Part shown: piece after piece, positions 10,866 through 50,967 of the stretch
How positions within the stretch are numbered: position 1 is the stretch's first letter
Layout of the letters: every line of letters begins with the position of its first letter
From: Gemmatimonas sp.
GTDB lineage: Bacteria > Gemmatimonadota > Gemmatimonadetes > Gemmatimonadales > Gemmatimonadaceae
DNA: 64,000 bases
Direction: 5' to 3'
NCBI GenBank assembly: GCA_031414535.1
Contig: JANNVQ010000008.1
Span: 1 to 64,000, forward strand
Position numbers and translations under genes: made by a program
The notes under the pieces: model-generated
The model's input: only the letters and a program-made list of their open reading frames with translations
Told to the model about the DNA's origin: nothing
Databases searched by the model: none

Positions 10866-10988
10866 GGACTGATGACGGGTGACGGATGGCGGATGGAAAC
10901 GGCCTCAACAATTCTGCACAAATTCTCGTCACGCCGCCCACGCACTTCCTTCATCCGTCATCCGTCATCCGTCATAAGTCATCCGTCC
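10866..10988. repeat. GACGGAT/ATCCGTC heptamer palindromic element, intergenic copy
   Basis: Degenerate (GACGGAT)n arm at 10871-10896 and (TCATCCG)n arm at 10951-10988. Confidence 0.8.
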
Positions 10989-22466: not shown

Positions 22467-22597
22467 TTCACCACGAAGGCACGAAGGCACGAAGGGAGCC
22501 GCGACAATCTCACGGCCCCGCAATCCCAAGAGGCAATTCCTTTCTGGGGTCGCGGGGCCGTGAGTTTGCAGAGAGCCCTTCGTGCCTTCGTGGTGAA
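22467..22597. repeat. ~130-bp palindromic REP/MITE-like element, copy 1
   Basis: Terminal inverted repeats TTCACCACGAAGGCACGAAGG...CCTTCGTGCCTTCGTGGTGAA and an inner stem CACGGCCCCGC/GCGGGGCCGTG; lies between convergent genes. Confidence 0.88.
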
Positions 22598-29888: not shown

Positions 29889-30008
29889 TTCACCACGAAG
29901 GCACGAAGGGCTCCCTGCAAACTGACGGCCCCGCGACTCCAAGAAGAAATGCTTCTTGGGGTTGCGGGGCCGAAAGATTGTTGCGGCTCCCTTCGTGCCT
30001 TCGTGGTG
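29889..30008. repeat. Palindromic REP/MITE-like element, copy 2 (inverted relative to copy 1)
   Basis: Same terminal repeats; the interior aligns to the reverse complement of 22467-22597; lies between convergent genes. Confidence 0.88.
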
Positions 30009-39819: not shown

Positions 39820-40839
39820 CTAAGAGCCATCGCGCTTGGAGGCCTGAAAAGCCATCGCCCGCAGGCGCGACACCCGGATGGCCATCGGCGGGTGCGTCGC
39901 AAAAATGTCCGACCAGCGCCCCTGTCGCTCGTTCGCGATCCGCCCGGTTGGGTCCACGATGCACAGGTGGGCGACCCCATTCGAGATCGAGGTGGTGGGC
40001 GCGTGGTGGGACTCGATCTTGGCGAGGGCGTCGGCCAAAGCAGCCGGGTTCCTCGTGAACTGGGCGGCCATGGCGTCCGCCAAATATTCCCGCCCTCGGC
40101 TCACCGCCATCGCCATCAGCCGGATGATGACGGGCGCTAAAATCCAGGACAGAACCCAGACAACCAGGACAATGACCACAAGCGGGTTGCCGCCCTTTCC
40201 CTCCCGCCGGGATCCCCCGCGGCGGTGGAACGTGGTGCGAATCATCAGGTCCCTGACCAGCAAAATGGCTCCGCCGAGCCCCGCGATAATGGTCATCAGG
40301 CGGGTGTCTTCGTTCTTCACATGACCCATTTCGTGGGCCACGACGGCCTGTAATTCGTCGCGGTTGAGGACTTCAAGGAGGCCCGTGGTCACCGCCAAAT
40401 GGGCCTCGCCCGGCTTGGTGCCGGTCACGAAGGCGTTGGGGTCCGCCTCGGGCACCACATACACGGTGGGCATGGGCAGGCCCGCCGCAATGCTCATCTC
40501 CTCCACCACGTTCAGGAGTTGGCGCTCCTGATCCGTCTGCGGATTGATCAGGGGCTCCGCCCCCACCTGCTTCACCACACGTCGCCCGCCGTTGCGCAGG
40601 ACGTCCATCGTCAAGAAAAAAGCCGCGAGCCCCAGCACGGTCCCGCCCCAAGGAAAGCTGTGCCGGTACACAGCCTCCCCAGCGGGAGCGACCATGTCCT
40701 TGGTGGCCAGCCAGAGCGCGAGGTCGCCTCCTAAGCCCAGCCACAGGAAAAACAGGAGAAAGCCCGCCACCAACCACCAAGTTTTGCGGCGGTTAGCAGC
40801 TTGCTGTTCAAACAGGTTGAGCGTGGGTTTTGAAGTCAT
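39820..40839 (-). CDS. htpX: HtpX-like M48 zinc metalloprotease
   Basis: PNAF, AVVAHEMGH, SRGREYLADA and FATHPP motifs; paired with lemA. Confidence 0.88.
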   Translation of the reverse strand: MTSKPTLNLFEQQAANRRKTWWLVAGFLLFFLWLGLGGDLALWLATKDMVAPAGEAVYRHSFPWGGTVLGLAAFFLTMDVLRNGGRRVVKQVGAEPLINPQTDQERQLLNVVEEMSIAAGLPMPTVYVVPEADPNAFVTGTKPGEAHLAVTTGLLEVLNRDELQAVVAHEMGHVKNEDTRLMTIIAGLGGAILLVRDLMIRTTFHRRGGSRREGKGGNPLVVIVLVVWVLSWILAPVIIRLMAMAVSRGREYLADAMAAQFTRNPAALADALAKIESHHAPTTSISNGVAHLCIVDPTGRIANERQGRWSDIFATHPPMAIRVSRLRAMAFQASKRDGS

Positions 40840-40844
40840 AGTCG

Positions 40845-40890
40845 GGACGGATGACGGATGACGGACGCGGTGCGCATCCGTCATCCGTCC
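40845..40890. repeat. GACGGAT heptamer palindromic element, intergenic copy between lemA and htpX
   Basis: GGACGGATGACGGATGACGG-spacer-CATCCGTCATCCGTCC. Confidence 0.88.
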
Positions 40891-40899
40891 AGTCCGCTG

Positions 40900-45335: not shown

Positions 45336-45513
45336 GGGAGAGGAGCGAGGAGCGAAAAGCGACAACGGAAGAGCGAAGTATTGAAGAGTGAAGGGTGAAG
45401 GGACGAAGGTTGGAGGGAGAGGATTGAACCTTCTCCTTCGGCCCTTCGTCCCTTTTCCCTTTCCCCTCACTACTTCGATTTTCAACCTCGCTCTTCGCTC
45501 CTCGCTCTTCCTC
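45336..45513. repeat. Long purine-arm/pyrimidine-arm hairpin built of heptamer repeats downstream of ftsH
   Basis: The GAGGAGCGAGGAGCGAAAAGCGA...GAAGGGTGAAGGGACGAAGG arm is mirrored by CCCTTCGTCCCTTTTCCCTT...TCGCTCTTCGCTCCTCGCTCTTC. Confidence 0.75.
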
Positions 45514-47643: not shown

Positions 47644-50600
47644 GTGACAACGAGCGGAATGAACTTTAGAACGATGCCGGCGGACCTGACCGCTGACGCA
47701 CTGGAGCAGGAAGTGATGGCCCGCTGGACCCGTGACGGTGTGTTTGCCGCCTCGCAGGCCGCGCGCGCCGATGCTCCGGCTTGGGTTTTTTACGAAGGCC
47801 CTCCTACCGCGAACGGGAAGCCGGGCATTCATCACGTATTCGCGCGCACGGTGAAGGATCTGTTCTGCCGTCATCGCGCCATGCTGGGGCACCATGTGCC
47901 GCGGAAGGCCGGCTGGGACACGCACGGCCTCCCGGTCGAGATTGAAGTCGAAAAACAGCTCGGTCTCAGCGGCAAGCAGGACATCGAGCGCATCGGTGTG
48001 GCGGAGTTCAATCGCCGGTGCCGCGAGAGCGTGTGGACGTACAAGGGTGATTGGGAGGAGGTCAGCGCCCGCATGGGCTACTGGCTCGACTACGACGACC
48101 CGTACGTGACCTACACGAATGAGTATGTGGAAAGCGTGTGGTGGGCGCTGAAGACGCTGCACACGAAGAATCTGCTGTATCAAGGGCACAAGATTTTGCC
48201 GTACTGTGCGAGGTGTGGGACGGCACTGTCGTCGCACGAACTGGCGCAGGGGTACGAGGATGTTGAGGATCCGAGCGTGTATGTGGCGCTCGATTTGGAG
48301 ACGGGACGGATGACGGATGACGGAAGCTTGAAGCATCCGTCATCCGTCATCCGTCGAAGAATTATCGTGTGGACCACCACCCCGTGGACCCTCGTCTCCA
48401 ACGTCGCCCTCGCAGTGAATCCCGAGCTCAGCTACGTGGAGCTGCGGAAGAAGAGCGTTTCCGATTGGACCATCATTCTCGCTGAGGCGCGGGCGTCGGC
48501 GGTGTTGGGCGCCGACTATCGTGATCGTTGGGATGAGGTGGCGCTCGTGAAGGGCACTGCGCTCGTTGGCATGAAGTACAAGCGACCCTTGGATTGGGTG
48601 GAGTATCCCGACGAGGGCAACACCGAGTTGATCGTGGGCGAGGAGTTCGTCTCGGCTGACGATGGCTCGGGTGTCGTACATATGGCACCGGCCTTCGGTG
48701 CTGATGACTACGCGGCGGGGCAGCGGCACAAGCTGGCGTTCGTAAATCCGGTAAACGCGCGCGGCGAGTTCCCCGCGGCGATGCCGTTGGTGGGCGGACT
48801 GTTCGTGAAGAAGGCCGACCCGCTCATCATCGAAGAGCTCGAGCGGCGCGACCAGCTCTGGAAGTCGCAGCAGTTCGTGCACTCGTATCCGCACTGCTGG
48901 CGCTGCCGCACGCCGCTCCTGTACTACGCGCGTGGCTCGTGGTTCGTGCGCACCACGGCGTACAAGGACCGGATGATGGCGCGCAACGCCGCCGTCAATT
49001 GGAATCCGCCGGAAGTGGGTGCGGGTCGCTTTGGTTCTTGGCTCGAGAACAACATTGACTGGGCCATCTCGCGCGATCGCTACTGGGGCACGCCATTGCC
49101 CGTGTGGGTGAACGACGAAGACACCGATGAGATTGAAGTCATCGGATCATTCGCCGAGCTCGCCGCAAAGGTGGGGCGCGCGTTGCCGGACGACTTTGAT
49201 CCGCACAAGCCGCACATCGATACGTACACGTGGCCTGCGCCAAGTGGGAAGGGCACGATGCGTCGTGTGCCGGAAGTCATTGATACGTGGTTCGATTCGG
49301 GCTCGATGCCGTTTGCCCAGTGGGGATATCCCCACCAGGCGGGCAGCGCGGAGAAGGTGGCGCGCTACTTTCCGGCGGATTTTATCGCCGAAGGCGTGGA
49401 CCAGACGCGAGGGTGGTTTTACTCGTTGCTCGCCATCGCAACTGGTTTGGGTGATGCCTTGCCCGGAAATGCGGCGGACACTGGACGGATGACGGATGAC
49501 GGAAGCGGACCAGCGTCCGTCATCCGTCATCCGTCCCCGTTGGCGTCCCCCTACCGCGCCGTGGTCGTCAACGATTTGGTGTTGGACGCCAACGGGCAAA
49601 AGATGTCCAAGTCGCGTGGCAATACCGTGGATCCGCGGCAAGTGATGTCGCGACACGGGGCTGATGCCGTGCGGCTATTCCTGATGGCGAGTTCGCAGGT
49701 GTGGGTGCCGCGCCGCTTTGATGAGTCGGTGATTCGCGAGACGGCGGGGCGCTTCCTCGTGACGTTGCGGAACGTGTACTCGGGCATTTTTGCCCAGTAC
49801 GCCAACTTTGGGTGGACGCCGAGTGCCGAGGATCCGGCGCCGAGTGCGCGTCCGGTGTTGGATCGCTGGGTGCTGTCGCGTCTCGCCTCGGTAGAGCATG
49901 AAGTCGATGCGGCGTTGCTGCGCTTCGACGCGACAGCCGCGTCGCGGCTGCTCATGGAGTTTGTCACGGAAGACGTCGCCAATTGGTACGTGCGTCTGTC
50001 ACGCTCACGCTTTTACGACGTGACGAGCGAGGACAATCGGGCCGCCTTCGCGACGCTGCACGAGGTGCTCGTGGTAGTGTCGCGCTTGCTGGCGCCCTTC
50101 GCGCCGTTTGTGTCGGATTGGATGCACGTGGAGCTCACGGGGCAATCCGTACACTTGGCCGATTTTCGTCGTCACGCGGCGTCTGCCTCCGTGCTGCCGC
50201 GCGACGAAGGGCTCGAGCGCGCGATGTCTGCCGCGCGCACGCTCTCCACGCTCGGCCGTGCCGCGCGAGAGTCGGCGGGCATCAAGGTGCGGCAGCCGCT
50301 CGGCACGCTCACCTGTGTCACGCCGGGTATTGAGGCGACATGGCACGCGATGATTGCGCCGCTCGTTGCGGCGGAACTGAACATCAAGTCCGTGCGCTTT
50401 GAGGATTCCGCCGCGGACTGGGTGCGCCTCGAAGGCAAGGCGAACTTTCCTGTGTTGGGGAAGGTTGTCGGCGCCGCGATGAAGGCGACGAAGCCGGTGG
50501 TGGAGAATCTCGACCAAGCGCAGTTGAGGACTATCGAAGGCGGCGGTATGGTGACGGTAGACGTGCCGGGCCACGGACCACTCGAGTTGGATGCGACGCG

Positions 50601-50967
50601 GGTGACGATTGCTGCCAAGGCCTCAACGACGTTAGTCGTGCAGCAGGGCGAGGGCATGTCCGTCGCATTGGATCCGGCGTTGACGCCGGAGTTGCGCGCG
50701 GAGGGTATGGCCCGTGAAGTGGTGAGCCGTGTGCAGCGCCTGCGAAAGGAAAGCGGGCTCGCCGTCAGTGATCGGATTCGCCTGGTGGTGGCGGCGACGA
50801 TTGAGGTGCAGCAAGCCCTGCGTGTGCACGCGCAGTGGGTTGCATCAGAAGTGTTGGCCCGGGACTGCGTCATCGCCGATGCGCTCCCGACCCCCGCGTG
50901 GCCCGCGACCGCCGAGCTTGAACTCGACGGTACGATGGCGCGCATCGCCCTTTGCAAGGACAGTTGA
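47644..50967 (+). CDS. ileS: Isoleucine--tRNA ligase, type 2, with GIHH signature and two repeat insertions
   Basis: EGPPTANG, GWDTHGLPVE, WTTTPWTL, DWAISRDRYWG, EGVDQTRGWF and KMSKS; type-2 C-terminal REVVSRVQRLRK. Confidence 0.97.
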   Translation: MTTSGMNFRTMPADLTADALEQEVMARWTRDGVFAASQAARADAPAWVFYEGPPTANGKPGIHHVFARTVKDLFCRHRAMLGHHVPRKAGWDTHGLPVEIEVEKQLGLSGKQDIERIGVAEFNRRCRESVWTYKGDWEEVSARMGYWLDYDDPYVTYTNEYVESVWWALKTLHTKNLLYQGHKILPYCARCGTALSSHELAQGYEDVEDPSVYVALDLETGRMTDDGSLKHPSSVIRRRIIVWTTTPWTLVSNVALAVNPELSYVELRKKSVSDWTIILAEARASAVLGADYRDRWDEVALVKGTALVGMKYKRPLDWVEYPDEGNTELIVGEEFVSADDGSGVVHMAPAFGADDYAAGQRHKLAFVNPVNARGEFPAAMPLVGGLFVKKADPLIIEELERRDQLWKSQQFVHSYPHCWRCRTPLLYYARGSWFVRTTAYKDRMMARNAAVNWNPPEVGAGRFGSWLENNIDWAISRDRYWGTPLPVWVNDEDTDEIEVIGSFAELAAKVGRALPDDFDPHKPHIDTYTWPAPSGKGTMRRVPEVIDTWFDSGSMPFAQWGYPHQAGSAEKVARYFPADFIAEGVDQTRGWFYSLLAIATGLGDALPGNAADTGRMTDDGSGPASVIRHPSPLASPYRAVVVNDLVLDANGQKMSKSRGNTVDPRQVMSRHGADAVRLFLMASSQVWVPRRFDESVIRETAGRFLVTLRNVYSGIFAQYANFGWTPSAEDPAPSARPVLDRWVLSRLASVEHEVDAALLRFDATAASRLLMEFVTEDVANWYVRLSRSRFYDVTSEDNRAAFATLHEVLVVVSRLLAPFAPFVSDWMHVELTGQSVHLADFRRHAASASVLPRDEGLERAMSAARTLSTLGRAARESAGIKVRQPLGTLTCVTPGIEATWHAMIAPLVAAELNIKSVRFEDSAADWVRLEGKANFPVLGKVVGAAMKATKPVVENLDQAQLRTIEGGGMVTVDVPGHGPLELDATRVTIAAKASTTLVVQQGEGMSVALDPALTPELRAEGMAREVVSRVQRLRKESGLAVSDRIRLVVAATIEVQQALRVHAQWVASEVLARDCVIADALPTPAWPATAELELDGTMARIALCKDS
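48304..48355. repeat. GACGGAT palindromic element inserted in frame in ileS (copy 1)
   Basis: GGACGGATGACGGATGACGGAAGC...CATCCGTCATCCGTCATCCGTC, read as GRMTDDGSLKHPSSVIR. Confidence 0.92.
49483..49536. repeat. GACGGAT palindromic element inserted in frame in ileS (copy 2)
   Basis: GGACGGATGACGGATGACGGAAGC...TCCGTCATCCGTCATCCGTCC, read as GRMTDDGSGPASVIRHPS. Confidence 0.92.

Follow-up and report, generated by a model that had tools for sequence, protein, structure and literature searches.

How did two hairpin-forming inserts come to lie, in frame, inside the gene for isoleucyl-tRNA synthetase (IleRS), and to what kind of repeat do they belong? The gene is located in the window, by which we mean the whole stretch of 64,000 nt analysed here, taken from the Gemmatimonas sp. 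genome under study (G000; 3.70 Mb, 58 contigs, 98% complete). The features concerned are listed below, the elements without strand.

47644-50967, plus strand: ileS, isoleucyl-tRNA synthetase, an open reading frame with the Pfam domain tRNA-synt_1; host gene of both elements.
48304-48355: element 1, at the first insert site (S1); 52 bp, formed by a purine arm of three GACGGAW units, a short spacer and the complementary arm.
49483-49535: element 2, at the second insert site (S2); 53 bp, with the left arm of element 1 and a different spacer.

Alternative start codons of ileS are possible at 47659 or 47674. Since there is no second IleRS-level match in G000 apart from the gene at 47644-50967, we infer that ileS is essential. 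Element 1 is located directly before the WTTTPWTL motif of IleRS and element 2 in a genus-specific loop between QTRGWFYSL and KMSKS; the translation confirms both positions, which an earlier note on this DNA had assigned from the letters alone. That note had also described the pair as in-frame palindromes with an identical 24-nt left arm, and this is what we find: the same 24-mer opens both elements, and there are 19 copies of it in the genome. The observation that both inserts are read in one frame is true as well, but, because the 24-nt arm contains TGA in each of its two other frames, the common frame is forced and is not independent evidence. The predicted peptides are GRMTDDGSLKHPSSVIR for element 1 and GRMTDDGSGPASVIRHPS for element 2, and GRMTDDGSLK and TGRMTDDGSGPASVIR are peptides predicted for translated hairpins in IleRS. 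Folding energies are -44.5 and -47.7 kcal/mol for elements 1 and 2 (z of -9.6 and -7.9, respectively).

Support for the inserts from sequencing runs consists of assembled contigs. Both inserts are bridged without differences by contigs of run X1, a possible source of this DNA; run X3, which comes from another study and represents a strain about 92% alike, has a contig that crosses element 2 without gaps. Among the contigs of this related strain no empty alleles are seen at the ileS elements. In the alignment to solved IleRS structures both inserts fall in gaps, at about residues 213-217 and 566-572 of 8c8w; given these gaps and the length variation in relatives, the inserts would sit in surface-exposed loops. 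The inserted peptides are most likely neutral passengers. In the comparison with solved structures, the enzyme is nearer to the 8c8w/1ile group and the eukaryote-type enzymes than to the 1ffy group, and we take it to belong to the type-2 branch.

The ileS elements are members of a dispersed family. A 13-mer of the family has 16 matches in the window, where 0.12 are expected, and the two intergenic copies that the earlier note had placed at 10866-10988 and 40845-40890 were both located, with repeat sequence at 10874-10973 and 40846-40889, the second element with a slightly longer extent:

10866-10988: family member with a long unique spacer, intergenic.
40845-40896: family member between two minus-strand genes, overlapping a possible upstream start of the open reading frame at 39820-40884.

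A genome-wide search for GACGGAT-type repeats, as that note had proposed, gave 308 arms, which were grouped into 212 elements: 92 convergent pairs, 46 elements with a degenerate partner and 74 single arms. A second, slightly different definition gave 310 arms, 256 of which have three units; the arm is thus typically a run of three GACGGAW heptamers. By our own gene calls (3216 genes, 91.6% coding), 170 elements lie between genes, a further 27 run over a gene end and 15 are inside genes, one of these last being a 13-base match that is probably due to chance. With an intragenic share of 15/212 (7%) in a genome that is 91.6% coding, the family is depleted in genes. The idea of a dispersed, heptamer-built family that puts peptides into proteins is borne out: the 12 host genes scanned with Pfam encode IleRS, AlaRS, MetH, FtsK, a DNA polymerase III alpha-type (DnaE-like) protein, an aldehyde dehydrogenase, an E2 acyltransferase, NAD synthase (NadE), a spermidine-synthase-domain protein, an ABC transporter, a PF03602 protein and a TPR protein, with IleRS and FtsK hosting two elements each. 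When an arm faces a gene end, it generally lies close to the stop codon (112 of 157 such arms between -25 and +10 nt). Spacers are mostly unique, the 69 spacers of at least 20 nt giving 11 matches among themselves, and target-site duplications are not above chance (seen in 6 of 91 pairs, where shuffling gives 2.9 on average and 9 at most). No Y1 transposase or RAYT (PF01797) was found in G000, the transposase search covering the Y1 family. Reverse transcriptase PF00078 is found in one of 46 genus genomes, namely in G000, on another contig than the window; a reverse transcriptase was rejected as driver on this distribution. This only reverse transcriptase of G000 (L062, 1288-2154), with its adjoining helix-turn-helix gene (2161-2463), was not found in the 45 other genus genomes; from its motifs we take it to be retron-like.

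When the same loops are compared in relatives (Gemmatimonadaceae, where named), the sites are conserved and the units are not. The S1 loop of ileS has a length of 8-38 residues in 45 genomes and is periodic in 22 of them, and the S2 loop is periodic in 7 of 50 genomes. At least six unit types occur at S1; the ileS units include GACGGAW, GTGAGAC, GATGAAG, GGTGTGA, GATGGGA and GGGAGTT. The earlier note's expectation that relatives would lack the inserts is not supported, many of them having a different heptamer in the same loop. The net gain is about 12 residues at S1 (a loop of 20 residues, where the shortest has 8) and reaches at most 20 residues at S2 (28 compared with 8), many relatives having a non-periodic S2 loop of 20-23 residues. 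That loops are being added, as the same note supposed, holds for ileS but not for MetH and AlaRS, where residues of the loop have given way to the arm and the length is almost unchanged; MetH of G000 is no longer than that of G067 or G008. At one position of MetH, GACGGAW is present in G000, G017 and G023, GTGAGAC in G012 and another unit in G067, and the linker of aldehyde dehydrogenase is bracketed by four unit types across five genomes.

Site reuse extends beyond genes. The closed genome G067 contains no GACGGAW dimer in the 800 kb compared with G000. Among 152 syntenic gaps, 10 were dropped for another periodic signal in G000, leaving 33 with a G000 element and 109 controls; G067 has a period-7 array of another unit in 12 of the 33 element gaps and in 4 of the 109 control gaps (Fisher p 4e-6), and the excess holds in three length classes. 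One of the 12 reused gaps is the site of the gene FHB1, described below. At one site both arms differ between G000 and G067 around a conserved host terminator, and at the FHB1 site of a cassette-less genome the terminator is still present, so spacers can be host DNA.

Small genes are found inside some of the arm pairs. FHB1 and FHB2 are the two four-helix-bundle (PF05635) genes of G000. FHB1 (PF05635/TIGR02436, contig C27; solved relative 2gsc) is enclosed by GACGGAT arms, which form one of the few long-spaced arm pairs. FHB2 (contig C29) is bracketed by a second family, with GAGCGAA-type arms, and the single GxxExxY gene of G000 (contig C24, locus L061) by a third family, with octamer arms that have 132 matches genome-wide. 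Both PF05635 cassettes lie between protein genes. In all, 6 of 797 small genes of G000 are bracketed by repeats, and FHB1, FHB2 and the GxxExxY gene are three of these six. Arms of the second and third families are also present in the window:

45340-45511: second-family arm pair; composite GAGCGAA-type arms of about 80 nt that match the FHB2 cassette arms.
22467-22597: third-family octamer arm pair, of the type that brackets the GxxExxY gene.
29889-30008: third-family arm pair, octamer-type.

The two FHB2 arms have a length of about 80 nt and a position-specific sequence. For matches of 50 nt or more, each finds 33-34 loci, a count that includes the cassette arms, and the interior of the cassette is single copy in G000. 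The FHB2 arm of G067 has 25 matching loci in 800 kb of that genome and none in G000. The spread of arms is thus block copying and not local slippage. The bracketing is not confined to G000: an automatic bracket test was passed by 19 of the 30 four-helix-bundle loci fetched from the order and by 0 of 52 shifted control windows, and for cyanobacterial plasmids, where 21 records matched and 12 were fetched, 7 of the 12 are bracketed. Three such plasmid genes (L175, L177, L179) are located inside cas operons with heptamer runs alongside, two between cas6 and cas4 and one between cas10 and cmr3. Octamer arms bracket some four-helix-bundle genes in G038 (L039) and G029 (L044), so that a given gene family does not always go with one repeat period.

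FHB1 occupies one conserved position in the genus, between what we take to be hppA and ychF, and its arm unit differs between genomes. Close FHB1 orthologues, 67-70% identical, carry different units, and for this reason rewriting may affect the cassette arms just as it affects other sites. Among the 310 arms, those of FHB1 rank 22 and 105 in centrality, and their candidacy as the most central copies is not supported. Another candidate, that the spacers are deletion products of the FHB1 interior, was rejected, with one 11-nt match. Immediately interior to the cassette arm, L055 and its orthologous loci L115-L134 have a short conserved motif that survives unit changes; it resembles a candidate -10 box for the neighbour gene on the opposite strand. 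Genome G024 contains two copies of the FHB1 locus (L068, L069) with identical neighbours, possibly two strains in one bin.

Does the unit in ileS follow the cassette of its own genome? Of 35 genomes with both an FHB1 site and an S1 loop, 26 have a loop of at least 14 residues. Summed over these 26, S1 and the genome's own FHB1 arms have 390 7-mers in common, where permutation gives 101 on average and 268 at most, in a test that ignores kinship and overstates significance, since kin are not independent. Per genome, at least 18 7-mers are common in 13 of the 26, 10 in one and at most 6 in 12; the concordance is thus partial. Matches are found for six unit types and on separate branches, and between sister taxa the S1 loop and the FHB1 arms change together (G000 against G012, G047 against G050). 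The trees, quick IQ-TREE and FastTree runs, served for sister pairs alone and give no direction to the unit changes.

Across genomes, the GACGGAW/GTGAGAC match counts form a gradient, with 239/3, 94/0, 117/23, 156/79, 52/112 and 8/196; those with a GTGAGAC cassette range from 117/23 to 8/196. Both GTGAGAC loci of G000 are within about 20 nt of a GACGGAT arm. Mixed genomes and adjoining units of this kind fit a progressive replacement through stacking, in a direction that the trees leave open. Orphan units also occur. G017 has 117 GACGGAW matches, and neither of its two four-helix-bundle genes carries GACGGAW; the GGGAGTT arrays of G067 match neither of its cassettes. A PF05635 match is missing in 8 of 46 genomes, and the expectation of no arrays without a cassette meets with a mixed result: four of the five PF05635-less genomes tested hold 13-99 array matches (G046 20, G048 49, G057 99, G016 13) and the fifth, G014, has 2. 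In G046 the cassette site is truly empty; in G057 the gene neighbouring the cassette site is missing as well. Because of the orphan units, the arrays without PF05635, the non-central FHB1 arms and the unlike units that accompany similar proteins, the cassette may be a favoured passenger, not the driver.

We consider it about evenly balanced whether the ileS hairpins are gene-less copies of the arms that bracket a PF05635 gene, pasted into tolerant loops by re-seeding of sites. Underlying this reading are direct observations of the arms, the cassette, the genome-wide copies, block copying, site reuse, unit turnover and the partial concordance between cassette and arms. The mechanism can be pictured as follows. 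PF05635 resembles Avd, the helper protein of diversity-generating retroelements, according to the part of PMC10053308 covered. An Avd-like four-helix-bundle protein would bind the arm hairpin as single-stranded nucleic acid and would help host repair to copy an arm of 20-80 nt beside or over an older arm, a pasting that would proceed without transposase or target duplication. The same sites would be re-seeded repeatedly with the currently active unit, arms flanking host terminators and gene gaps would be retained, and intragenic copies would survive only in frame and in tolerant loops. No catalytic partner for the protein was found. The wider claim, that Avd-like cassettes drive template-directed rewriting without reverse transcriptase or transposase and overwrite hundreds of fixed 20-80-nt sites per genome from the cassette arms, among them loops in essential enzymes, is put forward tentatively, as a possibility with the greater weight against it.

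The two families of small genes could instead be passengers between arms that a host process or an unrecognised enzyme writes and turns over at permissive sites, the arms around these genes being rewritten in the same way. Arrays that persist where no cassette is detectable, the orphan units of G017 and G067, the switching of unit by orthologous cassettes and the bracketing of ordinary host genes (3/797) all point this way; on the other hand, bracketing is far commoner at four-helix-bundle and GxxExxY genes than at controls, in two phyla, each G000 repeat family has its own gene, and cassette-less arrays may be relics or assembly gaps, the neighbour gene also being missing in G057. We regard this alternative as rather unlikely. 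An old regulatory function, in which the arms are binding sites for the four-helix-bundle protein that drift by mutation, slippage and hairpin correction while selection keeps the match, would account for the position of arms near stop codons (112/157), for the persistence of sites across species and for units that are a few changes apart, and a regulatory role has been proposed for TAACTGA repeats in the part of PMC4679880 covered. It is made improbable by the copying of composite arms of about 80 nt as blocks, by old and new units stacked side by side, by unlike units accompanying similar proteins, and by the several parallel changes that would be needed at each of hundreds of sites.

Still more improbable is a classical cut-and-paste element of fixed sequence, like a MITE or a Rickettsia palindromic element (RPE), with loop reuse reflecting only a scarcity of tolerant sites. 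Terminal inverted arms, many copies and depletion in genes (15/212 in a 91.6% coding genome) are what such an element would show, and scarce tolerant sites do contribute to reuse. However, target duplication is absent (6/91 against a shuffled mean of 2.9 and maximum of 9), spacers are mostly unique and can be host terminators, 74 of the 212 elements consist of one arm, an arm takes the place of residues in MetH and AlaRS, and no transposase of the Y1 family, which the search covered, is present in G000. An assembly artefact in ileS, which might be feared in a 58-contig genome with arms that break some assemblies, has practically no probability left, since independent contigs bridge the inserts and relatives, with in-frame inserts at the same sites, have already refuted it.

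To our knowledge, dispersed heptamer arrays occur in several bacterial groups with no mechanism known, and PF05635 proteins have no known function outside diversity-generating retroelements. Re-seeding from cassette arms is the preferred reading. The genus makes the origin of such repeats testable with one small gene and a 25-base hairpin, and shows how essential enzymes can have their short loops rewritten repeatedly. Cassette-driven rewriting, if true, would be the source of the unexplained heptamer repeats in many bacterial phyla and would give PF05635 its function.

Intervening sequences in 23S rRNA that bear an S23p gene are excised from the RNA by RNase III. Rickettsia palindromic elements have a length of about 150 bp and a conserved peptide, and nearly half of them are in open reading frames. 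The likeness to the latter, as far as the part of PMC10969869 covered describes them, is that palindromic repeats lie in frame in unrelated housekeeping genes and add peptides; the earlier note had taken the ileS inserts for their analogue. This does not hold: only 7% of the G000 elements (15/212) are inside genes, just the arms of 20-24 nt are common, with no common body, and the unit varies between relatives. In the Coxiella 23S intervening sequence, three GACAGAT units precede the S23p gene (Warrier et al. 2016, PMC4990558, in part); G000 is alike in having a PF05635 gene with adjacent heptamers in a hairpin-bounded cassette, and GACAGAT is one base from its unit, but its cassettes are not in rRNA and gene-less arms are found genome-wide, extending into proteins.

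MITEs have in common with the G000 elements the terminal inverted repeats and many non-coding copies, and differ in their target-site duplication; the element ends here are common to cassettes that encode PF05635 or GxxExxY proteins, with a transposase search that covered Y1 only. REP/REPIN-RAYT systems and TIRtrons, in the part of Di Nocera et al. 2013 (PMC3733652) covered, also have a single-copy gene flanked by a dispersed repeat, one gene per family. In contrast to REP/REPIN-RAYT, the bracketed gene of G000 encodes a four-helix-bundle or GxxExxY protein and no Y1 transposase, and the arms are tandem heptamers or octamers. Diversity-generating retroelements may be comparable through FHB1, a PF05635 protein with a match to 2gsc, its Avd likeness being taken from the part of PMC10053308 covered; unlike in those elements, no reverse transcriptase is common to the genus (PF00078 in 1/46). 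The TAACTGA repeats of Beggiatoaceae (MacGregor 2015, PMC4679880, in part) likewise form abundant heptamer sets at gene boundaries, with stop codons in one orientation limiting their coding use; there, most copies internal to open reading frames fall at the ends of the protein and few pairs are inverted, whereas G000 has such pairs in abundance, also within enzyme domains and linkers.

The closest anatomy is that of the GGGAATC arrays of Xanthomonas and the GGGGA(C/T)T arrays of Nostoc, as given in the parts of Rehm et al. 2015 (PMC4692102) covered: about 185 are dispersed, about 70 form convergent pairs and 89-93% are intergenic, with few heptamers each, a position nearer the upstream gene and an intragenic minority. 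G000 has the same genome-wide short heptamer arrays, 92 convergent pairs and a mostly intergenic placement near the upstream stop, but its GACGGAW unit is without a G4 tract. The main text of that paper, in the parts covered, names no seeding gene, mentions neither 'four helix' nor XCC0516 and does not report unit turnover at fixed sites. In the literature covered, open main texts with few subscription papers and no supplements, PF05635 is linked to genome-wide heptamer families nowhere beyond the Coxiella locus, and there is no report of heptamer unit turnover at fixed sites. The anatomy is thus known already from the Xanthomonas and Nostoc arrays, and by their defining tests the G000 feature belongs neither to the Rickettsia palindromic elements nor to REP-RAYT systems; the genus is a natural experiment that ties heptamer arrays to PF05635, with fixed sites, changing units, mixed genomes and one gene per family.
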